From assembly GCA_024231695.1 (NCBI GenBank), contig JAAEQF010000099.1, positions 1 through 33,277 on the forward strand: a stretch of DNA of 33,277 nucleotides. Direction: 5' to 3'. The DNA is from FCB group bacterium. GTDB lineage: Bacteria > Zixibacteria > MSB-5A5 > GN15 > JAAZOE01. A program made the translations under genes and the position numbers. The notes beneath the pieces were generated by a model. The model worked only from the letters and a program-made list of their open reading frames with translations, made no database searches and had not been told where the DNA came from. This document shows, in pieces, positions 4,834-25,433 of this stretch (position 1 is the stretch's first letter; the number at the start of each line of letters is the position of its first letter).

Positions 4834-5019
4834 CTATCTCGCTTCAACTAGCTTTGATGGATTTTCCCAAGTGCCGTCTTCGTCGTTCCAGCCCCATCCG
4901 TTACTTTCAAAATCTTGCGTTTCTTCCTCTGTCAGTTTCTTGCCGTGAAGACACAAGTAAAGAGCGTCGGTAACAATACGCCTGTTTTCTTCGCTCAGTG
5001 TTTTTTGTGAGTGGCTCAT
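4834..5019 (-). CDS. Hypothetical small protein (61 aa), acidic/Trp-rich C-terminus
   Basis: It begins MSHSQKTL, sharing a start region with 4604-4831. Confidence 0.4.
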   Translation of the reverse strand: MSHSQKTLSEENRRIVTDALYLCLHGKKLTEEETQDFESNGWGWNDEDGTWENPSKLVEAR

Positions 5020-6335
5020 TATTTGTACTCCGGTGTGACGTAGGAAGTGGGTGTTCCAGCCCCGTCGTCGCTATGGGTTACCGTGTGCCCTGTGCCTACT
5101 ACTGCGAAACCGCCTGTTGTTTCTGCCTCTGCTGATGTCATTACGATGTTGTACTCTGGCGAATCACCCGGCGTGTCCGCAAGGTAATCACCACCCATGT
5201 AATTCGCTCTGTCAACTGCGTCCATTGCGTATGTTTTGAATATACCGAAGTCTTTGAGTGTGCCGTCGAGATATCCACCGCTATTCCTGTCGAAACCGAG
5301 TATCAACGAGCTAGTGAATGCAATCGCATCAATAATGCCAACCGTCGTCGTTGCGGGTGTCGTGGGGTCGTCAACATAGAGGTTGAAGTCCGCCCCGTCC
5401 CGACTGAGTATTAGTGAATGCCAGTCGGTGTCGTCTACCGAATCCGAGAATAATTGCGTGTCGTGGCCATCGCCGTCCTCTATCCTGACCCTGACTTTAC
5501 CGCCATTGACGCCATCGTCGCTCTCTATGACATAGCAATGTAATGAATGATTTGCCCCCGCTGCCCCAATGCTGAATAAATAACTGTGGTCTGTCCCGTG
5601 ACTGTTCAATTTGAACCGAATCGCCACCGACCAGTCGCCGTCTTGCAACTGCATGTCTGTACTGGCAGTTCCAGTCGTATACGAATTCGTTCCGTCATAC
5701 CCCCACCCCTGAACACAATATTCATCTCGCATCGCGGTCATCGCTTCGGAAACCTGTGCGTCGGAAAGAGCGTAGTCGTAGAAGGCAATGGTAGGGATGT
5801 TGCCGGTGAAGGGGGAAGACGGACCCGAGTCGAGCCCGCCAAAAAAAGTCACAGCAGACACCAAGTCCACATCGTAATTACTCGAATTAAATGTTGCGTC
5901 TTCGTCGGGATTGCTTGCGTTATCTACATATAGGTAAGCACTGCCCCCGGCCCCTTCATTGACGATACAAATGATAAGTTTATTGCCTTCGATATTTGCA
6001 ATGCTTTTGGTGCATTGCCCGATAGTATCTCCATTGGAGTCGTATTGGCGAACGCGAATGTATCCAGAACTGCCCGCCTTACAGTAAATGTCAAACGCCG
6101 AATCATCATTCTTCGCTCGCAGAATATATGGGTACGCCTCTGTCTGCACTCCCCCCTCTACCACCATCATCACCGTACTCGCCTGTTTACCACCCAGTAT
6201 CTTACCCAAATCAGCCGATGCCATGACATCACCGCCGTCAAAAGACATAGCGTCTTTGCGGTTCCATCGCATTGTGGCTTCGAGGATGGTGGGGCATTTA
6301 GCGGAAGTCGATTGCTTGAAATTATAGTCGGACAT
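5019..6335 (-). CDS. Fibre/receptor-binding-like protein with two concanavalin/LamG-like domains
   Basis: Two beta-sandwich regions carry LamG-type signatures ('DGDWSVAIRFKLNS...DWHSLILSRDGADFNLYVDD', 'LKDFGIFKTYAMD'). Confidence 0.6.
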   Translation of the reverse strand: MSDYNFKQSTSAKCPTILEATMRWNRKDAMSFDGGDVMASADLGKILGGKQASTVMMVVEGGVQTEAYPYILRAKNDDSAFDIYCKAGSSGYIRVRQYDSNGDTIGQCTKSIANIEGNKLIICIVNEGAGGSAYLYVDNASNPDEDATFNSSNYDVDLVSAVTFFGGLDSGPSSPFTGNIPTIAFYDYALSDAQVSEAMTAMRDEYCVQGWGYDGTNSYTTGTASTDMQLQDGDWSVAIRFKLNSHGTDHSYLFSIGAAGANHSLHCYVIESDDGVNGGKVRVRIEDGDGHDTQLFSDSVDDTDWHSLILSRDGADFNLYVDDPTTPATTTVGIIDAIAFTSSLILGFDRNSGGYLDGTLKDFGIFKTYAMDAVDRANYMGGDYLADTPGDSPEYNIVMTSAEAETTGGFAVVGTGHTVTHSDDGAGTPTSYVTPEYK

Positions 6336-8993: not shown

Positions 8994-9006
8994 TCCGTTT
9001 CCCTCT

Positions 9007-9873
9007 TTAGTCGTCAACTAAAATCAAATCGAAACCGGCGACACAGCTCATCGTGTCGGACGCAGCCACAAGCTTGACTCTTACATCTGTTTTTTCGGGA
9101 ATAGGACCGGCTGGTATTCCATATTCGTACTGCCAATGTGATGAACCAATATTCACTAATCCGACATGACCTTTGACTTGCCATGCACCGTTCGCTCCGT
9201 TATTGGCTCTCATTAACCATTGGAAACTGCCGTCCTCGCCGCCTTTGTTGTCGTTCATCAGGCCGACATATCCCTTGATGAAATATGCGGACTTCCCTGC
9301 TGGCACTGTATAGATCGCCTGTTGCGTCTGGCCCTCGCCGTCTGCAATAAAAATCGCAACAGTGGCCGCACCTTTTATTTCAACCGTGATATCACCCGCG
9401 TTTGTCTTTCCGCTTCCTGCCTCGGAAACAAAAGCTCGAAACATGCGAATGTATTTATTATCAAGATCAACAGCAGTCCCGCCTTTCAGTTCTTTGGTCT
9501 CCGATATTTCTTCCCAGTTTTCATCGAGACCGAAGACGGTAACAGACCTCGCACCTGTCCCCGCTGCGGTATCAGCGGCCTCCGTGGACTGGATGTCCAT
9601 TGACTGCGCGGTTGCCGGATAAAACGCATAGACGCCATCTCCTGCCCATATATCATCGCCAGCGGTTGCCGTTGCGTTATGCCCGAATTTATTCATTGAC
9701 GCATGGCCGGGAATATTTCCTTTGGCAACGTCGAGGTAAAATGCTGGAGAGTTTTTTGCTACTGCTTGATAGTATTTCAGCGAATCCGAATCGCTTTGCC
9801 CGAAGATAAACGGGAGTTGAATCGCTGCCAAAAATGCAATGGCGAAAATTACTAAGTAGTGTTTGGTTTTCAT
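9007..9873 (-). CDS. Secreted protein (N-terminal signal peptide), beta-rich
   Basis: 'MKTKHYLVIFAIAFLAAIQLPFIFGQSDSD' is a typical Sec signal peptide, and the rest is Gly/Val/Ala-rich. Confidence 0.5.
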   Translation of the reverse strand: MKTKHYLVIFAIAFLAAIQLPFIFGQSDSDSLKYYQAVAKNSPAFYLDVAKGNIPGHASMNKFGHNATATAGDDIWAGDGVYAFYPATAQSMDIQSTEAADTAAGTGARSVTVFGLDENWEEISETKELKGGTAVDLDNKYIRMFRAFVSEAGSGKTNAGDITVEIKGAATVAIFIADGEGQTQQAIYTVPAGKSAYFIKGYVGLMNDNKGGEDGSFQWLMRANNGANGAWQVKGHVGLVNIGSSHWQYEYGIPAGPIPEKTDVRVKLVAASDTMSCVAGFDLILVDD

Positions 9874-13890: not shown

Positions 13891-15252
13891 CTACGCCTTC
13901 GGCTTGAGTGTCGTCGGAATCCCGAGCGTTCTCGGTTGCGATCCGGACTGGTTGCCAGTTGGAGCCGTTGCGCTGCCGTAGTAATTCGGCTTGGCTGCCT
14001 TTACTGGTTCTGCGTTGGTGGCAAAGTCAGCCATCGTCTGCAAAACGCCATCTTCAAGAGTTGCAAGGTATTCGGCCGATGCCTTATTGCCTTTGTTCGC
14101 AACAATCGCGTCAATCATCGACTGCCGATTTGCCTCATTTGCGGCAATGCCGTTGCGAATAACAGCTTGCATTTTCGGATCCGCTTTTGCAAGCAATTCC
14201 TCGAATGTCGGCTGCGATTCATTTGATACCGGCAGCTCTTCTTTTTGCACTGGCGGTACTGCTGGTGGCGTCTCTTTGTTGGAAACGACCTCTGTTGCGA
14301 CGGGTGTGAATTTCTTCAGTTGACCGTCTTCCATGTTCGTGAGGAAATCTCGATCTTCCTCTGTCCAGGCAGTCGCTTCATTGGCGATTAAGGCCGAGAC
14401 AATTTCGGTTTTTTCGGTTGCTTTTCCCATTTGTTCTTGTTCCTTTTCTTGGGTAACATTATCGACCATATCGCCGAGAGGCCGGTATTCAACGACCTTT
14501 TCAACTTCAGTTGATTCGCCTTTTAGTGTGGCATCATTTTCGCCGATGGTATAATTCATCTTGAAATAATCGCCGTCCACTTCGTAAATTAAGTAGTCGT
14601 CGAAAACCTCACTGATCCAAGCACGTTCGCCGTAACGATCAAAAACGGATTGCCTCAACTTGTCGCGGATGCCGTCATGTGAAAGCTGGTTTGCCTGCAT
14701 GAGGCCAGCACCATCTGCAATCGAGCAACTGCCTTTTTGATCCGGCAAGATTGCCAAGTGATCCGGGCGGAAGTTCGTTGCGACGTGGCTGTATTTCTTG
14801 CCGTTCCATGTTCCGGGGGATTGTAGTGCGTCCGTAAAAAGACCAGTTGATACCTCCATGAGCTTATTGCTGTTGACCGCAAGTAAGACGCGATCATCGA
14901 CTGCTTCAAGCTTTTCAGGATCGAGCCAAGCCTCTGCGCGAAGCTTGCCCGCTTTCTTGTCGTACTTGGTGTTTAGAATGACGCCGACCTGCTGCGTCTC
15001 GATTATTTCTTTCGAGCAAGCAGACACACCTAATCCGTTTTTCGTTGGGTGATAAACGACAATTGGCTTGGCATCCCATGACTGTGGCGTCTTCTTTAAT
15101 TCAGACGGAGAGTAGTACAAAGGACCGTTCGATCCATTGTGTACACCCTCGGTAATCATAACCATAGGCACTACTAAATACGGCTTGCCGTCAAGCGTAT
15201 CGTGTCGCACTTTTTGCGTACTTGCGTTGAGCGAAATTCTGCAAAATAACAT
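13891..15252 (-). CDS. Putative prohead protease/scaffold fusion (DUF2213-like N-domain, Ala/Glu-rich C-terminal half)
   Basis: The N-terminal ~200 aa ('GKPYLVVPMVMITEGVHNGSNGPLYYSPSEL...WDAKPIVVYHP') resemble a phage head-gene family. The C-terminal ~200 aa are charged, low-complexity and scaffold-like. Its position between MuF and the decoration/capsid genes fits. Confidence 0.45.
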   Translation of the reverse strand: MLFCRISLNASTQKVRHDTLDGKPYLVVPMVMITEGVHNGSNGPLYYSPSELKKTPQSWDAKPIVVYHPTKNGLGVSACSKEIIETQQVGVILNTKYDKKAGKLRAEAWLDPEKLEAVDDRVLLAVNSNKLMEVSTGLFTDALQSPGTWNGKKYSHVATNFRPDHLAILPDQKGSCSIADGAGLMQANQLSHDGIRDKLRQSVFDRYGERAWISEVFDDYLIYEVDGDYFKMNYTIGENDATLKGESTEVEKVVEYRPLGDMVDNVTQEKEQEQMGKATEKTEIVSALIANEATAWTEEDRDFLTNMEDGQLKKFTPVATEVVSNKETPPAVPPVQKEELPVSNESQPTFEELLAKADPKMQAVIRNGIAANEANRQSMIDAIVANKGNKASAEYLATLEDGVLQTMADFATNAEPVKAAKPNYYGSATAPTGNQSGSQPRTLGIPTTLKPKA

Positions 15253-15314
15253 AAAGCCTCTTCTCCGTATTTGTCAAATTACGTTTTTTTCAGGTTTTTG
15301 TAAATACGCGCGGG

Positions 15315-15512
15315 TTATTTTCTCAATAATAAACGGTTACGCTGCCACCTTCGCAATATGCGTCGCCCGGAGTAATGCCTTGCGATCTTTGCCAATGCGC
15401 CTTTCTCAAATCGCATTCCGACCGCGAGCTTGCCCGCCTTTTGCTTCGACTCGATCAACATTGCAACCTTCGCGCCGCCAATCGTTAACTCGAGTCTTTC
15501 ACTAAATCGCAT
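15315..15512 (-). CDS. Small basic hypothetical protein (65 aa)
   Basis: ATG with an AAGGA RBS at 6-nt spacing; preceded by a 9-bp inverted-repeat hairpin. Confidence 0.4.
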   Translation of the reverse strand: MRFSERLELTIGGAKVAMLIESKQKAGKLAVGMRFEKGALAKIARHYSGRRILRRWQRNRLLLRK

Positions 15513-15797
15513 ATCCGTCCTTGTGTATTAAAAGCCGCCGACTTTCACTTTCACTGTCGCAACATGACGGACCAGAGCGTGTCGGCGGCTGCCGTGATGG
15601 TAAACCTATCCACGGATTCATTTATGCCGCTCGTCGCCATCAAGTTGTATTGTCATGTCAACCATTCCCAAACCACGATTGACATAGCTCCCGTTGCAAC
15701 GGCAATAACAATTACAATTCCCATTGCAACTGTGATTAAACAGCCTTTTATTACTTCGTCAAGTGGTCGCATGTCTGGCATGTCCCTAACCTCCATG

Positions 15798-15965
15798 TCA
15801 CCTTCTTGTTTTCCACTGACCGATGAATACCCACCAAATGGCGTTGAATGTTACCAGTGCGACCAACCCTACGCCAGCACCGCAACTTTGCAAGAAGTCT
15901 ATCCACCAATCCAATCCCTTTTTCTCTGGAGGGTCAATCCAATTCCCTTCTTTGTCGTAAGGCAT
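15798..15965 (-). CDS. Small membrane protein (C-terminal transmembrane helix); holin-like candidate
   Basis: Internal ATG at 15965 with a GGGAGGG RBS, 1 nt after the upstream TAA. The protein begins 'MPYDKEGNWIDPPEKKGLDWWIDFLQSCGAGVGLVALVTFNAIWWVFIGQWKTRR'. Confidence 0.45.
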   Translation of the reverse strand: MPYDKEGNWIDPPEKKGLDWWIDFLQSCGAGVGLVALVTFNAIWWVFIGQWKTRR

Positions 15966-15966
15966 G

Positions 15967-16188
15967 TTACCCTCCCGCCGCGTTGTTAAAAGTAAACCAC
16001 GCCCATGCAGCCGCGGCGCCAATAGCAGCCATAATGCCATACTTTCCAAAGTTCAACGCAAATAAAATAACTCTACCTGCTTCCGGGCCGAAAATTTCAG
16101 CCTTGTCTTTCTTTTGGACCTGCGTTGATTCCGTTTCATGGTCCGACCTATAAGGATCGAACGTTGCACGGTATTCAGGTTCAATCAT
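15967..16188 (-). CDS. Small membrane protein (C-terminal transmembrane helix)
   Basis: ATG at 16188 overlaps the upstream stop (ATGA). The protein contains '...GRVILFALNFGKYGIMAAIGAAAAWAWFTF'. Confidence 0.45.
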   Translation of the reverse strand: MIEPEYRATFDPYRSDHETESTQVQKKDKAEIFGPEAGRVILFALNFGKYGIMAAIGAAAAWAWFTFNNAAGG

Positions 16189-16586
16189 GTCTTCACCCTT
16201 TGGATTGCTGTTTGTAACCCCTGTATACCGACTTGAGTTGCATCGTGTTTGCGGTCGCACTTGTCGGCAATGTTCGTTGTTATCGTGTCAATCACCGCTA
16301 TAAAATCTTTTCGGTCTTGCTCGCGAGCCGTTGCATTTTCGGCCCTCTCTATCCTTGCCACTTCACGATCTTCTTTTGCCGATTTATTAAGCTGGGGAAT
16401 ATGATAAAAGAAAGCGTAAAGCGTCAACGCAGCAAAACAACCGAAAGAGCCGTATTGAATTATCGGCCCGAAAGCAGCGGAATCAATCGCTTGCAACGGA
16501 GCGGCAACCGGCTGCGACTGCGCTACCATGTACGAAACAATGCCCGATGCCGACCAGCTAATTCCTAAAATTGATTCTTTCAACAC
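16185..16586 (-). CDS. Membrane protein with one transmembrane helix and a charged coiled-coil C-terminus (holin/antiholin/spanin-like candidate)
   Basis: GTG start with an AGGAG RBS. The transmembrane segment is 'GPIIQYGSFGCFAALTLYAFFY', followed by 'KEDREVARIERAENATAREQDRKD'. Confidence 0.45.
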   Translation of the reverse strand: MLKESILGISWSASGIVSYMVAQSQPVAAPLQAIDSAAFGPIIQYGSFGCFAALTLYAFFYHIPQLNKSAKEDREVARIERAENATAREQDRKDFIAVIDTITTNIADKCDRKHDATQVGIQGLQTAIQRVKT

Positions 16587-16623
16587 GATTCCATTCTCCT
16601 GTCCCTCAAGGGGCTGTTATCAC

Positions 16624-17454
16624 CTAAAAAATAGGCTTTGGGGGTTCCATCCAAGTTGGTGTAATTACCGTTCTTTGCGCCCACGCCCCGAAACTTCTAA
16701 TGCCGGACGAACAGAAACTTTCGGAATCATGTCCGTATCCGTTATCACCCCAATCACCCCACGAATTAAGATACTTGACGTACCACTTGCGATTTTCGTA
16801 AACGAGTTTCATGCCGACAATAGCGTGCATAGATCGGGCATACGAAACAACGAACCCGCGAAGTAATGCAACTGCCAACCCGTCGAAAGATTGCACGTCG
16901 AACCATTCATCGGCCCGCAAAAATCCGGCGGTTTCCTGCCAGTCTTTCGGGAATCCGTCTCGCCATGCGTTGGCTTCCATGAAGTGCTTTAGGTTCGGGT
17001 TCGCTTTATTCTCTTTCGTCGGCGTCGGTAATGCTCCAACTTCTTTAAGCTGGTTGATGTTGTCGTACATATTCGAGCCGTTATCGCGTGAAACGATTTG
17101 CTCGTAGACTGAATTTGGAGAAAGCTGGATTGCTTTTTTCATGCCGAACGCTTTGTTCCAAGTGATCTCCTGGCATGTCGTCGAACTATTTGACGCGCAC
17201 GAATTATAACCGTTTTGGCTTTTCACCGGCCCCGCGAATTGCTCAAGGCCGACGTGTTCGCCGATGTGGTCGCCCCATTCAGAACGGGGTATCCATGTCT
17301 CGGCTGCTGGTTTGAAAACGTCTTCAAAGACAGGTAGAATCCCGCCAACCCTGCGACGCCCTTTGTCGTCGTATCCAGTTCCTTGATTCAAGCATCCTGT
17401 TTTGCGACCAGGAGGTGGCGTGGTTACGTTTAGAAATGAAATAGGCACGATCAC
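16624..17454 (-). CDS. Papain-like (C1 family-like) cysteine peptidase
   Basis: 'QNGYNSC' has Gln and the catalytic Cys 6 residues apart, as in papain Q19/C25. 'HAIVGM' matches the His box and 'LNSWGDWGDNGYG' matches the Asn-Ser-Trp-Gly...Trp-Gly..Gly-Tyr box. There is no signal peptide. The start overlaps the upstream stop (ATGA). Confidence 0.6.
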   Translation of the reverse strand: MIVPISFLNVTTPPPGRKTGCLNQGTGYDDKGRRRVGGILPVFEDVFKPAAETWIPRSEWGDHIGEHVGLEQFAGPVKSQNGYNSCASNSSTTCQEITWNKAFGMKKAIQLSPNSVYEQIVSRDNGSNMYDNINQLKEVGALPTPTKENKANPNLKHFMEANAWRDGFPKDWQETAGFLRADEWFDVQSFDGLAVALLRGFVVSYARSMHAIVGMKLVYENRKWYVKYLNSWGDWGDNGYGHDSESFCSSGIRSFGAWAQRTVITPTWMEPPKPIF

Positions 17455-18152
17455 CCTCCCTTTCTTTTGATAAGCGACAATGTAGCCTCTGCCGTCAGGG
17501 GAAGTTCTCCCTTGAACAAGAGCTTGTTTGTCTTGAAATCCGTTAATATCAACGCGGGAAGTTTAACGTTGTCGTCGTCGCGTGAAGGGTCGCCATCGAG
17601 TATTTCTGTAAACGGATCGCACGATTTTTGCGACGGGTCCATTATCCATAATTCGTGATCCTCTATTGCATTCGCCGAGCGAATCGCCGCTATCTGCTGG
17701 GCAAGTGCCGGAGTCTGATCCTCTGTTTCTCGAATCAAAACTATATTGCGCTTGCCCGGTTGCGGCAAAGGGTCAGGGGTCGGTGTCGGGTCTGGATTTG
17801 GATAAGGCGTCGGAATTGGCGGGACAGGACCGTCTTCTGCATTGTCGAAATCAAAGACAAACGTCTTTACGCCGTCAGACGTCTTTGATAAGAGGATGAT
17901 CCAGACGCGGCATGTCTCGCGGCTTGCAAAGATTATTTCGTTCCCGCACCGATGAAAGCAGTTGCGAGATGCAACAGGAAAATAAACCACATCATGCTCG
18001 GCCGGTGCATTGACGATTTGGAAGACGGCTAAATTGCCGGATCGCGTGACGTTCGGCCCTGTGACAGAAGCATCGGCCCCCGACGCACTGGCAACCATCG
18101 TTACCAGTGCAATAAGTGCTATCGGGAATAGCTTTTTAGGCCATGCCATCAT
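17451..18152 (-). CDS. Secreted protein with a Pro/Thr-rich linker (PIPTPYPNPDPTPTPDPLPQP) separating two domains
   Basis: The start was set at the ATG at 18152, which overlaps the upstream TGA (ATGA). The signal peptide reads 'MMAWPKKLFPIALIALVTMVASASGADA'. Confidence 0.5.
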   Translation of the reverse strand: MMAWPKKLFPIALIALVTMVASASGADASVTGPNVTRSGNLAVFQIVNAPAEHDVVYFPVASRNCFHRCGNEIIFASRETCRVWIILLSKTSDGVKTFVFDFDNAEDGPVPPIPTPYPNPDPTPTPDPLPQPGKRNIVLIRETEDQTPALAQQIAAIRSANAIEDHELWIMDPSQKSCDPFTEILDGDPSRDDDNVKLPALILTDFKTNKLLFKGELPLTAEATLSLIKRKGG

Positions 18153-18664
18153 GCACCGCCTCTCGCTTGCCGCCGCTGTCGCCATGACTTGATAAGCGAG
18201 ATCACTTCGCGAACGGCGCCGATGATTGCAAAGATCGTGACAGGATCAATACCGACAACCAGTGCAGTGTCGCCATCAATTGCACCGACAACCGGCTTGT
18301 AATCATCGCCACTATTCGAGAAGTCCGCTATGTCGAACAAGCGATCGTAAACGTCGTCGCTTTCGACCATCGCGGTCAAAAGAGCGGCCGCCTTGTCGTC
18401 GATTTCGGTAGGCGTGAACGCAGCCAACTGTCCACCGCCCGCAGCAAGCGTTGCCAGCCATTCTCGCACGGCGGCTTTGTCGTCGAGATCGGGCAGGTCC
18501 ATCAATGACCAAAGATCAGTGAAATCAACCTCCTTGATAACTGCCCATAGATCGGGCAGGTCGAAAAGCGATTGAAGATTAAGCGACTTCACTTCTTTCA
18601 ACATTCGCAAGACTTGTAGCGGCTTCCAATCCCTGATACCGCTCACATTTAATTCTTCTGACAT
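18149..18664 (-). CDS. Acidic hypothetical protein with an internal (L/M)DLPDL repeat
   Basis: 'SLFDLPDLWAVIKEVDFTDLWSLMDLPDLDD'. It is the first gene after MuF. Confidence 0.4.
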   Translation of the reverse strand: MSEELNVSGIRDWKPLQVLRMLKEVKSLNLQSLFDLPDLWAVIKEVDFTDLWSLMDLPDLDDKAAVREWLATLAAGGGQLAAFTPTEIDDKAAALLTAMVESDDVYDRLFDIADFSNSGDDYKPVVGAIDGDTALVVGIDPVTIFAIIGAVREVISLIKSWRQRRQARGGA

Positions 18665-18762
18665 TTTTTATACTCCCAAAATTACGACGATCAAAAGCCG
18701 GATCGCCTTCGGCCTTCTATTCGATATTTTGCCAACTTGCTAAAAAAACGCAATACGCGCCT

Positions 18763-20058
18763 TTACTTTTTTGGCTGTAATGTCACTACATCAAATGAAC
18801 CAGAGAGAATTTGACGCAAGCATTTTGCTTTTAATTTACGCTCGCCACCGCTGTAAACCTGCCCGTTTACTGTGATTTTTGGATTCTCCCTGTATAAGTA
18901 ATCAACCATTTTTTTCATCGAGCTATTGGTAGTAATCACGCCATGCCGAAATTCTATCTCTTCGGTCGATCCTCCCATTTGCACAGTTAGGATATAGCTG
19001 CGATCATCAACATTTGCGTTTTCCGTTGGCCGTTTTTTTGCGACTTTTACATCGGCGCCAACCCATTGTGTATCCGCAATCGCTTCCTTTTTGGATTTCC
19101 CGGGCCGCTCGGCTCGTATTGATTTGGATATTGCCGAGTCGATTTCTTTCTTCGTTGTCTTCTGCCCTTTTCGCTTGTCGTCCGGGTAAGTTGGCAAAAA
19201 ATTGCATCGGCAATTTGGATGTCTTGGTATCAGCCCCCTTGCCTCTTTTACCGTCATTACAACGCCTTCAAGAGGCTGGCAAAGAGGACACACACGATCA
19301 TCCTGAGCATTAGAAATTTCCGCGAGCACCTCAATGTCGTCGATATCCTGCGCCTCAAATGAATCAAGCTGTCCTTCGGCGTGCGCGTGAATAATTTCCG
19401 TTCTGGCCATCGCTAAAGCCCGCTTGCGTTCAATGGATTCAATCTGACTAGTGATCCTTTTCGCAACTTCTCGCGGCCCGTCGCCATGTGCAATTGCGGC
19501 TGATAGTTCGCGGGAGATTGTCTGCGACATTGCGTCCGTTATGCCTTGCAGTTGATCGAAAGCCCGGGTTGAAATCAGCTTTATTTTCGACACGGGAACA
19601 CGGGCATTGAATGCACCTGAAAGAAATTCTTCTGCCGTGCCATCGTAGAAAGACAGGTTGCCGAGACCTGCCCTCTTTGCCGCCAGATACGAATTGACAG
19701 CACCTTTGCGATATGCGGATTCAATATAACCAGAAGTCCAGAAGTCAGGAGCCGATACTGGCAGGCCACCAGGGCGGACGCTAAGAATTTCATCGTTCAT
19801 TGCCTCTCGCATCCATGCCTTGAAGTTCGCAACCTTTGCTTCGTCCGTCTCGAATCGCCAGCGGCTATTACCTGTCAAGCCTTCTGTGTTTAACCCAAAT
19901 GATACAGGGTCTTTTAATCCGAAAACATCATCCCGGACGATCAGATCATTGACACGCTTGCGAAGTTTACGAAACCGCCGCTTGACTTCAGCAACAAAAT
20001 TCCGCCGCAGTGTCAACGTTCGAGTTGGATCGACTTTGAATGGGTTAACCATCTTCAC
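18763..20058 (-). CDS. Head morphogenesis protein (Mu F / SPP1 gp7 family) with a ~150-aa C-terminal extension
   Basis: '...ARTEIIHAHAEGQLDSF...DRVCPLCQPLEGVVMTVKEARGLIPRHPNCRCNF' carries the HPNCRC hallmark of the Phage_Mu_F domain. It sits immediately after the portal gene. Confidence 0.75.
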   Translation of the reverse strand: MKMVNPFKVDPTRTLTLRRNFVAEVKRRFRKLRKRVNDLIVRDDVFGLKDPVSFGLNTEGLTGNSRWRFETDEAKVANFKAWMREAMNDEILSVRPGGLPVSAPDFWTSGYIESAYRKGAVNSYLAAKRAGLGNLSFYDGTAEEFLSGAFNARVPVSKIKLISTRAFDQLQGITDAMSQTISRELSAAIAHGDGPREVAKRITSQIESIERKRALAMARTEIIHAHAEGQLDSFEAQDIDDIEVLAEISNAQDDRVCPLCQPLEGVVMTVKEARGLIPRHPNCRCNFLPTYPDDKRKGQKTTKKEIDSAISKSIRAERPGKSKKEAIADTQWVGADVKVAKKRPTENANVDDRSYILTVQMGGSTEEIEFRHGVITTNSSMKKMVDYLYRENPKITVNGQVYSGGERKLKAKCLRQILSGSFDVVTLQPKK

Positions 20059-21475
20059 CCTCGGCTATGCCGTAATCATCGCCCTCGGTATCTTCGATGA
20101 TCGCATTGTCAACCTTTTCGATGATTGCCTCCGCTTCTTCAGAACTGTAGCCCATAACCTTAGTCAAGAAGTCCATGCGGTCCATAATGTTCTCGGCACC
20201 GCCCTTGACGTATTCGACCATCATTTTAACAAGCTTAACTCCTCGCTCTGCGATTGCGTCGGGCGTGTCTTCGTTCATGTCCGGCCACGTTACCACATAC
20301 TTTTCCGGTTCGGGCAATATGCCAAATGCAATGAAGCGATCAATCACTGGACGAATTACCATCGGCGCGAGATATTTATTTTGACGATAGGCAAGTGTGC
20401 CGTTGAAATTCTTTTCATCTTGGCTCGACGCGAGCTCGCCCGCCTCGTTACCCGCAAATATCCGCAATGGAATGCCGCAGGTAATCGCAAGTGCTTTCAA
20501 CTGCGTCTCGAATTGATCTTTAGGTGATACCACTTGCGGAGAGATCGAACTTGCTTTGACGTTGCGAAGTGCGAGCGTCCTTTGCAGGTCGTTCGTGTAG
20601 TTGAGAATTTCCTCTTTGAGTGCTTCTTTTTCAGCAGTCGTTAATTCGTCGGTGTCATTCATTTCAAGGAACACACCCGGGAAAGCCCCCTTCCAATACA
20701 TCTCGGCCGATCCGCCTAGCGTCTTGCGAAGGTCCAGCAGGCGATTAAAGCCGGATTCCATTCTCGGCGTTCCAAATGTCTCACTTGTGTGTCGATTGTC
20801 GGCAATGTGAATACAACGCGACCAATGCACCTTGAGCACCTTTACCTTTGGGTTAGCATTAACGCTAGCCGATGATTGACCTGGCTTGAAAAATTCTATT
20901 TCATAAAGCGTCGGCTGTCCAAATCTCGGGCTAGTTGCATCGTCGTTATATTCAAGAATCTTCGCTTGAGTCTGGTCGAACGTGCGGAGGTAAAGAAGAT
21001 TGTGTTCTGCATCCCCCTCTTTCATGCCATCTTCGTTGATCCCATCGACCGGCTGGCCTATGTCTTTGCCGTCGTCAATGCCAAGTAGCAATACGCCATA
21101 ATTCGCGATACCTGAAAGCCCGTCGATCCTTGCGAGATAATGCCAGATGTTTTTTTCGTTCACCAAGTCAAGAACAGCAGTCTCAAATTCCGTCGCGTCA
21201 CCTTCCGCATTTTCCTCAACTGAAGGATCAACCTGCCAGCACTTTTCGGGAAAGATATTTACAACACGGGCGCCGATACCTTCGCGTTTGTACATCTCGC
21301 GATACATCGTATCCGTAATCTCTTCGGGATAATGACAAGACGTGTTTAAGTTGCGATTGTCATCGTAGACGCTGTTCATTAGTCTAGCAAGCGACGCTCT
21401 GGATGCTATGTATTCATTGAGCACAAGCGGGTCGACATTGGTCGTTGGTTTCGGTGCTACCTTTTTTTTAGCCAC
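20045..21475 (-). CDS. Portal protein (DUF1073-like) with an acidic C-terminal tail
   Basis: A 476-aa protein with no P-loop, located immediately before MuF. GTG start with an AGGAG RBS. The C-terminus reads 'EDTEGDDYGIAEGEDG'. Confidence 0.6.
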   Translation of the reverse strand: MAKKKVAPKPTTNVDPLVLNEYIASRASLARLMNSVYDDNRNLNTSCHYPEEITDTMYREMYKREGIGARVVNIFPEKCWQVDPSVEENAEGDATEFETAVLDLVNEKNIWHYLARIDGLSGIANYGVLLLGIDDGKDIGQPVDGINEDGMKEGDAEHNLLYLRTFDQTQAKILEYNDDATSPRFGQPTLYEIEFFKPGQSSASVNANPKVKVLKVHWSRCIHIADNRHTSETFGTPRMESGFNRLLDLRKTLGGSAEMYWKGAFPGVFLEMNDTDELTTAEKEALKEEILNYTNDLQRTLALRNVKASSISPQVVSPKDQFETQLKALAITCGIPLRIFAGNEAGELASSQDEKNFNGTLAYRQNKYLAPMVIRPVIDRFIAFGILPEPEKYVVTWPDMNEDTPDAIAERGVKLVKMMVEYVKGGAENIMDRMDFLTKVMGYSSEEAEAIIEKVDNAIIEDTEGDDYGIAEGEDG

Positions 21476-21524
21476 GGCAGGGCTCCTAGAAACGGCTGTC
21501 CGTCGATGTTAACGGATACCCGCG

Positions 21525-21553
21525 ATTTTACGCATGGATTGCTTTTTTGTCCA
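21525..21553 (-). promoter_or_regulatory. Candidate sigma70-type promoter upstream of the portal gene (TGGACA-17 nt-TAAAAT on the minus strand)
   Basis: Read directly from the sequence: -35 at 21553-21548 and -10 at 21530-21525, about 45 nt before the portal RBS. Confidence 0.3.
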
Positions 21554-21573
21554 TACGCGCCGAATAGAGAGGC

Positions 21574-21795
21574 TTATTTTCGGTTAGATTTGCAGTAGAT
21601 TTCGCCGTCGTGCTTTAGAAATTCAAGAACCTCGTACCGTTTGAGGGTTACGTTGTAAGCAAAATAAGTCATGCCGTCGAACGTTGAATCAAGAGCGTAT
21701 GTGCAATGTCTTTGCGTTTCAATATCCATCATCTTAACGCTTGGCTGCGACGGATCGAGCTTGTAATCACTGACGGCCATTTTCCGATCTTCCAT
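21574..21795 (-). CDS. Hypothetical protein (73 aa)
   Basis: ORF in the unidirectional minus-strand array. Confidence 0.35.
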   Translation of the reverse strand: MEDRKMAVSDYKLDPSQPSVKMMDIETQRHCTYALDSTFDGMTYFAYNVTLKRYEVLEFLKHDGEIYCKSNRK

Positions 21796-21901
21796 GTTTA
21801 CTTGATCCGTCCTGTCTAATCAAAAAGGGTTAATTGCCTTGGCTTGTCACGTTCTTTTTCAATCCGCTTTTTGGCGATGTTCACTGCGTAGGACTCCGCG
21901 T

Positions 21902-22228
21902 TCACCTGGTTTCATTGCTTTTGATTTTCTGAAGTATTGCATCAAGTGCTTCAGTTCCCATTTCTACACTGGCTACGGCTGCTTCAAACACGCCGCAACA
22001 CATTACTATACCGGCCGAATCTTCGGATGTCATGTCTTCCTGTGTCATTTCCTGGTAAATGCCGTGCGATATGGCGTGAAGGTGCTTACTAATGGTAGTT
22101 AACGCTTCGATCTGTAATTGCCGTCTATCATTCATTTTGGCTTCTCCTTTCTTAATTATACGTCGCCTTTCGGCCTTCCTTTGACAATAGATGCTATTTC
22201 CTGACAGTTTTCCTCTGGCAATTGGCAC
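21902..22228 (-). CDS. Hypothetical protein (a likely shorter product starts at the internal MNDRRQ...)
   Basis: ORF in the array. Confidence 0.35.
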   Translation of the reverse strand: MPIARGKLSGNSIYCQRKAERRRIIKKGEAKMNDRRQLQIEALTTISKHLHAISHGIYQEMTQEDMTSEDSAGIVMCCGVFEAAVASVEMGTEALDAILQKIKSNETR

Positions 22229-22554
22229 TGAACCAGGGTCGGCCCGTCCTTGGTGTCGACCACCGCTGGCCGCATCAATTCCTTTAGTCGATCAAAGCAT
22301 TTTGCCTTTTCGATGGTCAATAAACCCTGTTTCAGCGCCTGTGCTGATTCCGTCATGTTGACGTCACCTTCGAGCATGTATTCCTCTTTGAGAAAAATAA
22401 AATGCTGTCGTAGCATCGCATAATCTTCGAGCATTGAAATAGCCTCGCGATACATGGCAATGTCGGACTTCTCTTCTTGCAATCCAACGCTTTCTCGCAA
22501 TGAATCAAGGAGGTTCGTCTTTGCCCTGAGTTGCTCAATCAGCACGTTAACCAT
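22156..22554 (-). CDS. Small coiled-coil protein, paralog C of a tandem triplicated family
   Basis: ATG at 22554 is preceded by AAGGAAGCGAGGACAAAG and the protein contains 'CFDRLKEL'. Confidence 0.5.
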   Translation of the reverse strand: MVNVLIEQLRAKTNLLDSLRESVGLQEEKSDIAMYREAISMLEDYAMLRQHFIFLKEEYMLEGDVNMTESAQALKQGLLTIEKAKCFDRLKELMRPAVVDTKDGPTLVQCQLPEENCQEIASIVKGRPKGDV

Positions 22555-22786
22555 CTTTGTCCTCGCTTCCTTTACAAAGATCAATCATTTCAACCCATTT
22601 TTTTAGCGGGACGGTAGGGGGCCGCTTCCCCAAAGAAACAATCAGTTCCTTCAGCCGCTCGAACTTCGTTTCCATTAGAGCAATTTCCATGTCCTTCAAT
22701 GACAACTGCATCTTGACATTGCTTTTCATCTGGTCGGACAGGCTGCGCATTTCCTGTAGTGCCTCTAATGCTTGTTCAGGTGTCAT
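22547..22786 (-). CDS. Small coiled-coil protein, paralog B
   Basis: ATG at 22786 is preceded by the same ~25-nt RBS/start block. The protein contains 'KFERLKEL...CKGSEDKDG'. Confidence 0.5.
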   Translation of the reverse strand: MTPEQALEALQEMRSLSDQMKSNVKMQLSLKDMEIALMETKFERLKELIVSLGKRPPTVPLKKWVEMIDLCKGSEDKDG

Positions 22787-23090
22787 CTTTGTCCTCGCTT
22801 TCTTTACAGATTCTATCCGCCTCAAACTTGCCAGCAAGCGTGAGCCGCCCCTTGCCATGAAGTCTCCATAGTTCCTTTAGCCGCTCGAAGTCGGCTAATT
22901 CATCAAGTAGGTCGCGATTCATATCTCGCGCTGATTCGGCATCTTCCAACGCTTTTTGAACGATATTAGCCGGGCACATCTTGTTATCCTCCGCCCAATC
23001 ACAAGGGCAACCTCCGCCATTAATGTCACACTCACCGGGCGGGGTAACTTGGCCAATAAGCACCTCGTATGCTTCCCATTCAGGTGTCAT
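22776..23090 (-). CDS. Small coiled-coil protein, paralog A, with an N-terminal Cys-rich segment
   Basis: The protein contains 'DFERLKEL...CKESEDKDDT', and a GGGAGG RBS precedes the start. Confidence 0.5.
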   Translation of the reverse strand: MTPEWEAYEVLIGQVTPPGECDINGGGCPCDWAEDNKMCPANIVQKALEDAESARDMNRDLLDELADFERLKELWRLHGKGRLTLAGKFEADRICKESEDKDDT

Positions 23091-23575
23091 AATCCAGCCT
23101 CCCTTAGCGACTTTTTCCAGTCGCAGGTTTCAGTTATTGTTATTTTGCAGTTAAGAAGTCGCTCCATGTCTTTTGGCCTCATTATCACCCCAGTGCATGT
23201 CTCCCAGTAAACTGGGGCTCGGGGGGAATGCTTGTCTTGCTTATAGGGCCGGTCTGTGCAAAAAATAATATGAGTGGTAGCAGGGAGGCTTTGATTCCTC
23301 GCTATAAAACGAAACGTCTTGTTCGTCCTTTGGCACACTTCGTTGATGACCTCCTGGTAAGTTCCAGTAATATCGCCCGTGCGGGCTTCGAGTATGTGCG
23401 CCGCAACGCTTACACTGTCGTGCGCCTCGTTCAACTGGCTGACGCTCCACTTGTAGCCACCGCCTTCCAAAACGGCCTCTCTATGTATGTCGTACAGGAC
23501 TCCCTCGGCCACTCCGAGATCGTAGATTAACTTTCGTTGCTCAGCGTCGTTCATATCTTCACCCTCACTTTCCAT
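23087..23575 (-). CDS. Hypothetical protein (162 aa)
   Basis: ORF in the array. Confidence 0.4.
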   Translation of the reverse strand: MESEGEDMNDAEQRKLIYDLGVAEGVLYDIHREAVLEGGGYKWSVSQLNEAHDSVSVAAHILEARTGDITGTYQEVINEVCQRTNKTFRFIARNQSLPATTHIIFCTDRPYKQDKHSPRAPVYWETCTGVIMRPKDMERLLNCKITITETCDWKKSLREAGL

Positions 23576-24195
23576 GTTTCGTCCATATCGGGGGACCAGT
23601 ACATTTCTATAGTTCCAGTTGGGCTGACGTAGCCAAGGAATGCCTCGTAATTAATGGCGTTGGAAGCGATTTGCACGAATTCGACTGGGTCTTTGAAGTA
23701 GTATCGCCCAAAGCTCACGTAGATATCCAAGTCCCTGTACGCAGGCTCAGATGATTCGACAGGTCCTTGCGGTTCGCCGAGACGAACAACCACGGTATCG
23801 TTGCTTGCCATGCTTGGGCCACTACATGGAAACCACTCGTAAGTCTCCCTCACGAAGCACCGCTCCGGCTCGGTGTCGAGGATGTGGTTGAAGTAATTCT
23901 GAGATGCTTCACTGAACCTGTTGAACGGCTTACTGTTATTAATGAACGCCTTATCAATAATCCTTCTCAGTTCAGGGGTAATATAATCAGGGTTCTCTAC
24001 GCGGACTTTATCGGCCATCTGGTAGCCACCGTTTTCATTCATGATGTACCACTGATACGGCTTCCCGTCGTCTCTTCTTCCACATAAAGTGCCAAGCATC
24101 CAATTGACGTCATCGCCGTCAATCCATTCAATAGGCTTGTTCCAGTGCTCGCCCATGTTCGGTACGATATGCTCGTCGGTAATGTTAATTTTCAT
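23551..24195 (-). CDS. Hypothetical protein (214 aa)
   Basis: ORF in the array. Confidence 0.4.
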   Translation of the reverse strand: MKINITDEHIVPNMGEHWNKPIEWIDGDDVNWMLGTLCGRRDDGKPYQWYIMNENGGYQMADKVRVENPDYITPELRRIIDKAFINNSKPFNRFSEASQNYFNHILDTEPERCFVRETYEWFPCSGPSMASNDTVVVRLGEPQGPVESSEPAYRDLDIYVSFGRYYFKDPVEFVQIASNAINYEAFLGYVSPTGTIEMYWSPDMDETWKVRVKI

Positions 24196-24207
24196 TTTTC
24201 GATCTCC

Positions 24208-24450
24208 TTAAAAAAGCATTAACTGTTTGTCTTTTTCTGGTTCATCTACTACCGGCTCCCACGGGTCACCCGGCTTGCGTAGAATCATTTTAACCGCACC
24301 TGGAAAGCAGTCATATACACACGACATATCGCTCGCGAGTTCACAAGGTCCGCAACCGCTACCACTGCCGGTTGGGCCTTCTTGTGCGATTAGCTTTTGA
24401 CCTTTGTGGATTATTGTGTCACCGGGTTTCATTGGTTCGTTCATTATCAC
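24208..24450 (-). CDS. Small Cys-rich hypothetical protein (80 aa)
   Basis: ORF in the array. Confidence 0.35.
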   Translation of the reverse strand: MIMNEPMKPGDTIIHKGQKLIAQEGPTGSGSGCGPCELASDMSCVYDCFPGAVKMILRKPGDPWEPVVDEPEKDKQLMLF

Positions 24451-24493
24451 ATCCCCTTTGGTGGTTCAACTTTCGGCATTGGACAATTGACTT

Positions 24494-24637
24494 CTATGTA
24501 CGGCAGGTTGCCTCCGTCGCTTGGATGCCGCAGCGAGGCCAGTTGAATGATTCGGGCAGCCCGTGTGTCTTTAATGCGCCACCGACAAAATCAACGAGCA
24601 CACCATCCATGTCGAGTAAAATTTGATTTATTGTCAT
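24494..24637 (-). pseudogene. Truncated remnant of a HAD-superfamily 5'(3')-deoxyribonucleotidase-like gene (47 codons)
   Basis: Hand translation gives MTINQILLDMDGVLVDFVGGALKTHGLPESFNWPRCGIQATEATCRT*. The 'LLDMDGVLVDF' segment matches HAD motif I (DxDGV) at the nucleotidase N-terminus. The ORF stops after 47 aa where a full enzyme has ~170-200 aa. Its start overlaps the upstream stop (ATGA). Confidence 0.4.
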
Positions 24638-25242
24638 TTAGTCACCCTCACCTTTTTTGAATAATCAATCTCGTGCAATTCACAACCAATGCTGGCATTC
24701 ACCTTCTCGCAAGCGGCGACGAGTTCCGCATATCCGTCGACTTCATTTACATCTGGAGGGTCAAGGTCTTCGCAGTTCCAGTTGTTTGCGAATTCACATT
24801 CGATGATGTCCTGCGCGTCAATGGAAAGCGTTCGGTATGGCTTTGTGCCGAAAAGGTACTCGGCAGGCGTAACCGGAACACCACACTCGCAACCATATTC
24901 GCACCACTCAAGATATTCGCAGACCGACCCAAAGTATTTATTGTATTCTTCATCATAAACCATTACGCCAGCGTCCGACTCCGCCACGGTTTCGGCTGCG
25001 TTGTATCGCCGCAGAATCCTTTCTACTGCTTTTTTTTCTTTGCATGATTCACAAACGGGATTGTCATACTTTGACTCAACCAACTCGCCGCACTTACACC
25101 GCGCATGTGTCGAGCAACATCCGTTTGCCGCATATCTGGTAAAGTGCGAATTCCCGCAGCTTTCGCATTTAAAACCACCGATCGTCATAGATTTTACTCC
25201 GGTTTCGCCCCAAATTTTCTTGGTCTGTTTTTTGTCTGTCAT
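24634..25242 (-). CDS. Cys-rich hypothetical protein (24 Cys in 202 aa; multiple CxxC pairs)
   Basis: 'CESCGNSH...CKCGELVESKYDNPVCESCKEK...' indicates Zn-ribbon-type motifs. Confidence 0.45.
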   Translation of the reverse strand: MTDKKQTKKIWGETGVKSMTIGGFKCESCGNSHFTRYAANGCCSTHARCKCGELVESKYDNPVCESCKEKKAVERILRRYNAAETVAESDAGVMVYDEEYNKYFGSVCEYLEWCEYGCECGVPVTPAEYLFGTKPYRTLSIDAQDIIECEFANNWNCEDLDPPDVNEVDGYAELVAACEKVNASIGCELHEIDYSKKVRVTK

Positions 25243-25433
25243 TATTCGGTCTCCGTAAGAAGTAGTTTAGCGGACGCCAAGCAGCCAGCCGCAAGTTCGA
25301 TATCTTCGAGTGCGTGGTACATGTCGTGCGGGTCAATCCTAGTGGGTGATTCCTCAAGGATGCAGGCAACCTCCGTCGCGATGTCTGTAATGGTTTCAAC
25401 CTGCCTGATTATAGATTCTTTTGTGATACTCAT
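25242..25433 (-). CDS. Small acidic hypothetical protein (63 aa)
   Basis: ORF in the array. Confidence 0.35.
   Translation of the reverse strand: MSITKESIIRQVETITDIATEVACILEESPTRIDPHDMYHALEDIELAAGCLASAKLLLTETE

Follow-up and report, generated by a model that had tools for sequence, protein, structure and literature searches.

A papain-type (C1A) cysteine peptidase of uncultured tailed phages and its exported partner: a possible envelope-acting, lysis-associated module

What could a papain-like cysteine peptidase do in a tailed phage, in which compartment of the infected cell would it act, and together with which proteins? These questions are raised by a stretch of 33,277 nucleotides (contig JAAEQF010000099.1 of assembly GCA_024231695.1, from an FCB group bacterium), hereafter the window, which is a fragment of a tailed-phage genome. 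An earlier examination of the letters alone, here called the sequence-only reading, had recognised the phage setting and had placed a C1-like peptidase at positions 16624-17454. The coordinates stand; the gene, however, lies on the minus strand, and the plus-strand reading of the interval contains many stops. Although the open reading frame (ORF) encodes 276 residues from a GTG at 17454, the likelier start is the second GTG, at 17448, which has better Shine-Dalgarno spacing and gives the 274 residues of the NCBI record GY841_02810, a protein of a metagenome-assembled genome (MAG) that the window product matches at 100%. We find that this protein is almost certainly a papain-type C1A peptidase, that its gene follows directly upon that of a predicted exported partner in every family locus of our set, and that the pair may form an envelope-acting, lysis-associated module, a reading that we hold tentatively.

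Taken singly, the peptidase sequence matched no Pfam family (PF00112 included) and no PHROG (phrog_16701 included) at E<=1, and a single-sequence search of the PDB gave only a faint match, to the mite C1 allergen Blo t 1 (E 0.42). A profile built from seven close homologues (alignment A1) matched, in the PDB, C1 peptidases only, among them cathepsin K (1.5e-5) and xylellain (PDB 3OIS; 1.6e-5), with both the Gln/Cys block and the His/Asn-Ser-Trp block aligned to C1 structures. An exhaustive hidden Markov model (HMM) search over 1.84 billion cluster representatives then retrieved 2,566 proteins at E<=1e-3, 675 at E<=1e-10 and 220 at E<=1e-30, most of the family proteins being 250-290 residues long. 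The profile of a second alignment (A2; 100 diverse stand-alone homologues, 27% mean column identity) matched 68 distinct PDB sequences at E<=1e-3, and those listed are all C1A enzymes. Its best matches were Schistosoma cathepsin B1 (8.8e-10) and xylellain (1.7e-9), the latter in a single alignment of near full length (profile positions 71-256 against residues 68-288). When 100 family members were scanned singly, 23 matched PF00112 (Peptidase_C1, best 5.3e-8) and no other peptidase family was found; 23 matched phrog_16701 ('peptidase'), and none matched CHAP (PF05257) or NlpC/P60 (PF00877) at E<=0.01.

The modelled structure leads to the same family. The AlphaFold2 (AF2) model of the peptidase, with a predicted local distance difference test score (pLDDT) of 81 and a predicted template modelling score of 0.84, shows a two-lobe papain fold, and its top 50 Foldseek matches in the PDB are all C1A enzymes, with E values from 4.6e-10 (procathepsin K) to 8e-8 and target-normalised template modelling (TM) scores of up to 0.65. 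In BFVD the best matches are entries named 'Peptidase C1A [uncultured Caudovirales phage]', the top one at 1.4e-11. CHAP and NlpC/P60 are absent from the PDB profile matches listed and from the top 50 fold matches, and a lysin of either kind was therefore ruled out, neither profile nor fold supporting it. The sequence-only reading had made the same distinction and had named assignment to CHAP or NlpC/P60, or the lack of a peptidase fold, as the outcome that would overturn it; the profile and fold searches returned C1A alone. On the strength of these profiles and the model, we regard membership in the C1A papain family as close to certain.

Do the residues of the active site support a working enzyme? 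All three motifs quoted in the sequence-only reading are present, namely QNGYNSC, MHAIVGM and LNSWGDWGDNGYG. Five residues separate Gln80 from Cys86, which is the i/i+6 register of papain Q19/C25, and in the profile alignments the two align with the Q19/C25 equivalents of cathepsin K, cathepsin B1 and xylellain; in the AF2 model C86 opens a helix spanning residues 86-103. The LNSWGDWGDNGYG box aligns with the NSWG(x)WG(x)xGY box of cathepsins and xylellain. In A2, C86 and H210 are conserved in 100 of 100 sequences each, followed by Q80 and S231 (99 each), R207 (98), N230 (97), I212 (96), W232 and W235 (95 each) and G236 (94), and C86 is the sole universally conserved Cys. Judged from the alignment, conservation of these motifs is far above chance. 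The family also has features of its own, including the active-site motif DQGxEGSC(T/V/A)SNA in place of CGSCW and the family-specific invariant residues Y117, G126, G140, E183, R207 and D243.

Inteins bear on the same residue. Our survey of architectures covered 156 family proteins (the seven close homologues plus the best 150 of the HMM search as listed, one being shared), which divide into 135 stand-alone peptidases, eight partner fusions, eight intein-containing proteins and five fragments. The intein carriers (P0009, P0017, P0049, P0050, P0123, P0135, P0144 and P0150) have the insertion directly before the catalytic Cys, between EGS and C(A/T/V)SNA, the intein itself beginning with CFPAGT and ending with VHN; inteins are also found at two IMG/VR loci (L011:4753-6561 and L017:1624-3510). 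Given this position, the protease nucleophile also serves as the +1 splicing residue. Two intein types occupy the same site, one positive for Hint/Intein_splicing and one Pfam-negative and ending in 'GN', and in some the splicing blocks are set apart by a large insert in the middle. Inteins usually sit at conserved functional sites, and those on the catalytic Cys provide independent evidence that the residue and the protein matter to the carrier phages. We found no description of inteins in this peptidase family in the literature on cysteine proteases, xylellain or phage C1 peptidases.

These observations also bear on whether the gene encodes a functional enzyme at all. A chance motif, a pseudo-enzyme or relic, or a mis-called ORF might have been suspected from the single protein, which has no Pfam or PHROG match and a weak PDB match. 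With catalytic residues conserved at 95-100% in 100 diverse homologues, profile and fold searches specific for C1A, and inteins kept exactly at the catalytic Cys in eight clusters, such an explanation is hardly credible.

Which kind of C1A enzyme is it? The window peptidase has no N-terminal hydrophobic segment and hence no signal peptide, as the sequence-only reading had stated. The signal peptide, I29-type propeptide and conserved disulfides of classical C1A zymogens are not present in the phage family; Inhibitor_I29 matched none of 100 members, and an I29-type zymogen was accordingly ruled out. The lack of all three excludes the classical 'long' C1A type, and the short prokaryotic, xylellain type (PMC10380794) fits. 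By sequence, the enzyme is thus of the short prokaryotic, xylellain-like type with a complete predicted Gln-Cys-His-Asn(-Ser-Trp) catalytic set. In place of an I29 propeptide there is an N-terminal extension of about 54 residues; a segment of about 80 residues had been proposed as a possible propeptide, and of this the existence of an extension was borne out and its length was not, nor is the extension an I29 propeptide. Residues 1-18 are disordered in the AF2 model and residues 20-64 have pLDDT values of about 78-84. Across the family the extension carries a hydrophobic-x-(V)-D/N motif, G20(-C21) and FED, and leads into a catalytic domain that starts with 'IPxSxW' or 'IPxxxW'; in A2, G20 is conserved at 94%, C21 at 51%, F43 at 58%, and I55, P56 and W60 at 66-87%.

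Xylellain of Xylella fastidiosa, which gives the best near-full-length profile match, is the closest characterised relative. It shares a 'DQGxxGSC(T/A)(S/A)NA' motif, the lack of both the C22 disulfide Cys and a Trp after the catalytic Cys, a short N-terminal extension in place of the I29 propeptide, and the absence of a signal peptide. Identity is nevertheless about 20% or less, and the phage family has its own invariant residues. Papain and cathepsins K, L and B have the same order and register of Gln, Cys, His and Asn-Ser-Trp and the same two-lobe fold, but the phage family is without their secretion signal, I29/ERFNIN propeptide and conserved disulfides, and from its 'IPxxxW' start to the Gln the phage peptidase is longer by an insertion of about 20 residues.

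C1A peptidases have been recorded in phages before, and finding one is no novelty in itself. Kordis and Turk (2023), who list accessions of them, described the acquisition of xylellain-type C1A peptidases by Myoviridae and Siphoviridae (PMC10380794). The contention of the sequence-only reading that C1 peptidases are rare in phages therefore proved overstated: the present family alone comprises at least 220 clusters at 50% identity, from uncultured phages, and UniProt C1A phage entries and phrog_16701 add to the record. Annotated C1A proteins of uncultured Caudoviricetes (A0A6J5QDM8, A0A6J5TCZ4 and A0A6J7XQB9) resemble the window protein in fold (BFVD E 1.4e-11, TM 0.67-0.70), length (250-280 residues) and phage origin, but are only 15-20% identical to it in structural alignments; for these, no function, partner or context was found in the papers retrieved. 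A tblastn search of INPHARED (50,697 phage records) with the protein and the family consensus gave no match, and thus no cultured phage there, and a scan of GTDB returned MAG contigs assigned to inconsistent phyla (Chloroflexota, Pirellulaceae, Thermotogae) and three ordinary bacterial C1 genes.

With what, then, does the peptidase work? Its start overlaps the stop of the upstream gene, ORF244 (GGGAGGGTGATCGTG; wider context AAGGGAGGGTGATCGTG), and its Shine-Dalgarno sequence, GGGAGG, is located within the end of that gene. The sequence-only reading had seen here a co-translated secreted protein with a Pro/Thr linker, and this held up: the upstream ORF has a signal-like N-terminus, from which its export is predicted, and the linker is present. 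A frameshift or read-through joining ORF244 and the peptidase was considered and ruled out, as the conserved peptidase N-terminus and the Shine-Dalgarno sequence indicate separate, coupled genes. The same arrangement extends to the 21 family loci collected (17 from IMG/VR and 4 from MAGs). Three C1 genes of an ordinary bacterial type, only distantly related, were found as well. With an HMM of the partner domain, the ORF that immediately precedes the peptidase in the same orientation gave a match in 21 of 21 family loci as well as in the window, and there was no match at the three bacterial loci; in this the phage family, with its obligate exported partner, differs from the bacterial C1 genes examined. 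Partners across the family are made up of a signal or anchor, a beta-sandwich that is optional, a Pro-rich linker and the putative thioredoxin-fold domain lacking CxxC. Across the family loci the partner stop and the peptidase start usually overlap by 4 nt, and the peptidase appears to be translationally coupled to the partner gene.

In the eight fusions (P0006, P0015, P0019, P0023, P0024, P0028, P0037 and P0140) the chain opens with a segment of the signal, lipobox-like or anchor kind and a Pro-rich linker, after which come the partner domain and then the peptidase. One of them, P0006, was verified on a 15-kb contig, where two small membrane-protein genes come next. By Rosetta-stone logic the fusions indicate that partner and peptidase work together, outside the cytoplasm, and since the fused forms place the peptidase there, the split forms most likely act there too.

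One alternative is a protease confined to the cytoplasm. It would act on host or phage proteins, in takeover, anti-defence or processing, and the exported protein would be a mere co-transcribed neighbour, a substrate or a regulator. The window protein has no signal peptide or N-terminal hydrophobic segment, and neither have 135 of 136 stand-alone members; cysteine peptidases favour reducing conditions, and signal-less prokaryotic C1A enzymes are considered intracellular (PMC10380794). Yet in eight independent clusters a signal or anchor and the partner domain precede the peptidase within one polypeptide, co-occurrence with the exported partner is 100% and accompanied by stop/start coupling, and exported CxxC thioredoxins and membrane proteins lie nearby, all of which makes a purely cytoplasmic role distinctly improbable.

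What is the partner? In the AF2 model its C-terminal domain has the topology b-a-b-a-b-b-a with pLDDT 66-84, and its Foldseek matches are nearly all thioredoxins or redox-inactive PDI-type domains (E 5e-3 to 4e-2), the model as a whole having a pLDDT of 58. Its low confidence can be ascribed to the small number of relatives, the k-mer homologue search having found only 3-4. An 'LPAL' sequence, corresponding to the cis-Pro loop motif, is conserved at the start of strand 3 in the partners. At the N-terminus of helix 1, the place of the CxxC site, 23 of 23 partners have no Cys and show E-(S/T)-x-x-x-T-P instead. If the domain does have the thioredoxin fold suggested by the model, it would be redox-inactive and PDI-b'-like. 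Twin-arginine translocation (Tat) 'hitch-hiking' of the peptidase with its partner was also considered and was ruled out, the twin-arginine being unconserved among the partner signals.

Genuine CxxC thioredoxins with signal-like N-termini were observed at most three genes from the peptidase in three unrelated phage loci (L003:1831-2211, L011:3684-4118 and L021:3233-4066), with the motifs CVYC, CPNC and CPGC and a Thioredoxin_2 match of 2.5e-9 in L003. Their sequences hint at a possible periplasmic redox requirement.

Where does the module lie in phage genomes? In the window it is part of an insert within the head genes (Table 1), and other genomes have it in different places: right before the large terminase and portal genes in L001, L017 and L005; upstream of the tape measure gene in L004 and L008; between head-tail genes and the tail fibre in L015 and L016; and, in L002, L026 and L027, with ERF, helicase, RusA and GNAT genes ahead of it and a sigma factor gene behind. 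The places upstream of terminase and portal (L001, L017, L005) and after RusA (L026, L027) are lambda-like lysis positions.

Some of these positions would suit a virion-associated protein, be it an internal or ejected effector, an entry tail lysin or an accessory head-maturation protease: the window gene has the Mu F-like head-morphogenesis gene on one side and the prohead protease gene on the other, and others immediately precede the tape measure gene (L004, L008) or stand between head-tail genes and the tail fibre (L015, L016). However, the window has a separate prohead protease/scaffold gene, which also ruled out the identity of the peptidase as the prohead protease. Virion assembly in the cytoplasm is hard to square with the Sec-type signal or lipobox that the obligate partner and the fusions carry, other phages carry the module among replication and regulatory genes, and no virion-protein PHROG was matched. 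Virion association is thus very unlikely, and the context favours an envelope or lysis role over the injected effector or processing protease that the sequence-only reading had also envisaged.

Table 1. Features of the window, with the gene order read along the minus strand
Feature	Position	Strand	Remarks
Replication genes	upstream of portal	minus	
Portal	21475-20045	minus	
Mu F-like head morphogenesis	20058-18763	minus	
Insert with peptidase module	18664-15653	minus	between Mu F-like head-morphogenesis gene and prohead protease
ORF171	18664-18149	minus	first gene of insert; acidic; repeated DLPDLW/DFTDLW motifs; hydrophobic/basic amphipathic C-terminus
ORF244, partner	17451..18185	minus	NCBI GY841_02815, 233 residues; from ORF and homologues
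ORF244 signal-like (Sec-type) N-terminus	~18075-18149	minus	
ORF244 beta-sandwich	~17844-18062	minus	low model confidence
ORF244 Pro/Thr-rich linker	~17757-17831	minus	
ORF244 C-terminal domain, predicted thioredoxin fold	17454-17756	minus	~100 residues; without CxxC
Peptidase coding sequence	17454..16624	minus	from ORF and translation; 276 residues from GTG 17454; divergent xylellain-type C1A cysteine peptidase (predicted)
Peptidase N-terminal extension, residues 1-54	17293..17454	minus	precedes papain-like 'IPRSEW' start of catalytic domain
QNGYNSC, residues 80-86	17197..17217	minus	oxyanion-hole Gln80 and catalytic Cys86
MHAIVGM, residues 209-215	16810..16830	minus	catalytic His210 box; aligned to catalytic His of C1A structures
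LNSWGDWGDNGYG, residues 229-241	16732..16770	minus	Asn230-Ser231-Trp232 box; equivalent of papain Asn175-Ser-Trp
ORF133	16586-16185	minus	one transmembrane helix, then charged coiled-coil-like C-terminal region; single Cys
ORF73	16188-15967	minus	C-terminal transmembrane helix; ATG after ORF133 stop; Shine-Dalgarno-like AAGGGTGA before ATG
ORF55	15965-15798	minus	single transmembrane helix; strong Shine-Dalgarno GGGAGG; start overlaps ORF73 stop
ORF47	15796-15653	minus	single transmembrane helix; begins just past ORF55 stop
Prohead protease/scaffold	15252-13891	minus	
Decoration protein	after prohead protease/scaffold	minus	
HK97-type capsid	12875-11790	minus	
Tail fibres with SASA esterase and LamG domains, then other tail genes	after capsid	minus	
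Tape measure gene	1624 to 1	minus	cut by left contig end

Between the peptidase and the prohead protease, the window carries four consecutive, tightly packed ORFs with a single transmembrane segment each (133, 73, 55 and 47 residues). In the family at large, too, small proteins with one transmembrane segment usually come after the peptidase. Proteins like the first of the four, with a transmembrane segment, a coiled-coil-like region and one Cys, recur on the downstream side in 10 loci or more; homologues were identified in L002, L018, L014, L017, L019 and L011, with weaker matches in L008, L003 and L005. In their architecture, with the single Cys C-terminal, the ORF133-like proteins recall i-spanins. 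The first gene of the insert, ORF171, has no Pfam match and only a weak match to a holin PHROG (E 0.095), and a homologue is found in L017 (405-848), two genes upstream of the peptidase. No canonical lysin domain (lysozyme, amidase, transglycosylase, M15/M23) was found in the 33-kb window, itself an incomplete genome, in any of 131 neighbouring proteins, or in the Pfam annotation of +/-10 kb around L026-L028, flanks that are likewise incomplete genomes. No gene for a large terminase was found upstream of the portal gene (21475-25430) or elsewhere on the contig; the genome is incomplete and its packaging genes are located elsewhere.

We therefore tentatively propose, at slightly less than even confidence, a composite reading drawn from sequence and models: an envelope-acting, lysis-associated, two-component peptidase module. 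Export of the partner would come early, and its Pro-rich stalk would keep it tethered at or close to the membrane. The peptidase, having no signal, would meanwhile build up in the cytoplasm under reducing conditions. Late in infection the neighbouring small membrane proteins, if holin- or spanin-like, would permeabilise the inner membrane and the peptidase would reach the envelope. There the thioredoxin-fold domain might bind, position or activate it, possibly via the conserved N-terminal extension, and the peptidase would cut an envelope peptide or protein, which may be a peptidoglycan stem or cross-link, a lipoprotein tether or a proteinaceous layer. Such cleavage would contribute to lysis of the host.

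The same localisation would serve a moron that acts on the envelope without a part in lysis, by remodelling or destroying host surface or periplasmic proteins for superinfection exclusion, for destruction of receptors so that progeny escape the debris, or for host modulation. The exported partner and the fusions agree with it equally well, the genome positions are variable, with the window copy interrupting the head genes where those for Mu F and the prohead protease would otherwise be neighbours, and there are no recognisable holin or spanin families beside the module. However, the stand-alone peptidases, all but one without an export signal, would need a permeabilised membrane to meet the partner, and this points to the time of lysis. 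The module also shares the orientation of the late genes and lies closely packed with them, and a scan of 15000-19000 for a promoter or terminator of its own found nothing above shuffled expectation. An envelope-acting moron consequently appears unlikely, while being an explanation to be taken seriously.

Several points weigh against the lysis-associated module itself. The small transmembrane proteins match no known holin, antiholin or spanin family of PHROG or Pfam; the contig is incomplete, so a conventional lysis cassette could lie off it; and the position among structural genes, in the window as well as in L015/L016, L004 and L008, would fit a moron or a virion protein too. The partner model is of low overall confidence and its thioredoxin E values are weak, and the sequence profile of the partner gave no significant match in the PDB (CheY 0.015, thioredoxins 0.3-0.9). 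The peptidase has no cell-wall-binding domain, and C1A peptidases are not known to be peptidoglycan hydrolases. The function of all family members is a prediction from sequence and models.

In its boldest form the proposal would describe new lysis machinery, in which a C1A peptidase, and not a muramidase, amidase or CHAP enzyme, is freed from the cytoplasm and cleaves an envelope protein or peptide after its capture or activation by a redox-inactive thioredoxin-fold receptor, which would have been exported beforehand and be tethered by a stalk. We consider this full version rather doubtful. The fused, signal-bearing forms would be the single-chain equivalent of such a two-component lysin, and in hosts with protein-rich walls its target could be a layer other than peptidoglycan.

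How does the module compare with known systems? A functional analogy is possible with CHAP and NlpC/P60 lysins, which are phage Cys-His peptidases that act on the cell wall and outside the cytoplasm; they belong to different families, and unlike them the phage C1A peptidase has no wall-binding domain. The endolysin Lyz of phage P1, in work attributed to Xu et al. in 2005, is reportedly a thiol-regulated, membrane-tethered lysin of the signal-arrest-release (SAR) type. The fused forms resemble it in concept, in that an N-terminal Gly/Ala-rich hydrophobic segment ending in Cys precedes a catalytic domain whose active-site Cys, in the oxidising periplasm, has to stay free or become so. Lyz, however, is a lysozyme and not a peptidase, the partner domain lacks a CxxC, and SAR behaviour or disulfide caging of the fused forms would be conjectural. 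The P1 lysis genes have been reviewed (PMC9025707).

Bacteroides fragilis carries mobile-element-borne C10 proteases, two of which are co-transcribed with adjacent genes for staphostatin-like inhibitors (PMC2873492). They offer a parallel in that a papain-clan cysteine protease resides on mobile or prophage-like elements and can be co-transcribed with a small dedicated partner gene. They differ in belonging to family C10 and not C1, and in that the C10 protease is secreted and its partner is a lipocalin-like inhibitor, whereas in the phage module the exported component is the putative thioredoxin-fold partner and the protease is signal-less. The baculovirus C1A peptidase V-CATH is deployed late to dissolve host barriers and depends on a co-encoded chitinase. 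It is thus analogous as a virus-encoded, partner-dependent C1A enzyme acting at the end of infection, but derives from a eukaryotic cathepsin F, has a propeptide and is secreted through the endoplasmic reticulum, and its partner and host biology are unrelated. The origin of V-CATH is treated in PMC10380794.

Three further observations concern neighbouring or related proteins. The peptidase model also matches a 484-residue uncultured-Caudovirales protein in BFVD, A0A6J5MXS7, annotated 'Peptidoglycan binding-like' (E 3.6e-6, 214 aligned columns), which, from the structural match, may combine a C1-like domain with one for wall binding and would, as a lead only, fit wall targeting by phage C1 enzymes. 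In the window, two tail-fibre-like proteins on the minus strand (6342-9017 and 5019-6335) have SASA (sialate O-acetylesterase-type carbohydrate esterase) and LamG/concanavalin-like domains, whose presence suggests a deacetylating, receptor-modifying fibre. A DUF5131 protein (phage Gp37/Gp68-type; 25430-26746, minus strand) extends about 150 residues beyond the Pfam model and has Cys-rich, zinc-ribbon-like insertions; an intein in this gene was ruled out, no intein signature being found.

What would the module mean for phage biology? The partnered module looks undescribed: in the literature on phage C1 peptidases and xylellain we found no description of the thioredoxin-fold partner, the fusions or the membrane-protein context, and with the literature on inteins in cysteine proteases included, no functional study of this peptidase family. 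If it is indeed a device for lysis or envelope attack, C1A would be a new enzyme family among the phage lysins, a set of enzymes currently explored for antibacterial use, and would bring with it a new logic of two proteins. Short prokaryotic C1A peptidases are regarded as similar to the common ancestor of the cathepsins, and hardly anything is known of what they do (PMC10380794); if true, the proposal would provide a first functional handle on them. The strict pairing with a CxxC-less, putatively thioredoxin-fold protein, in turn, offers a testable hypothesis on how a thiol protease may be deployed in an oxidising compartment.

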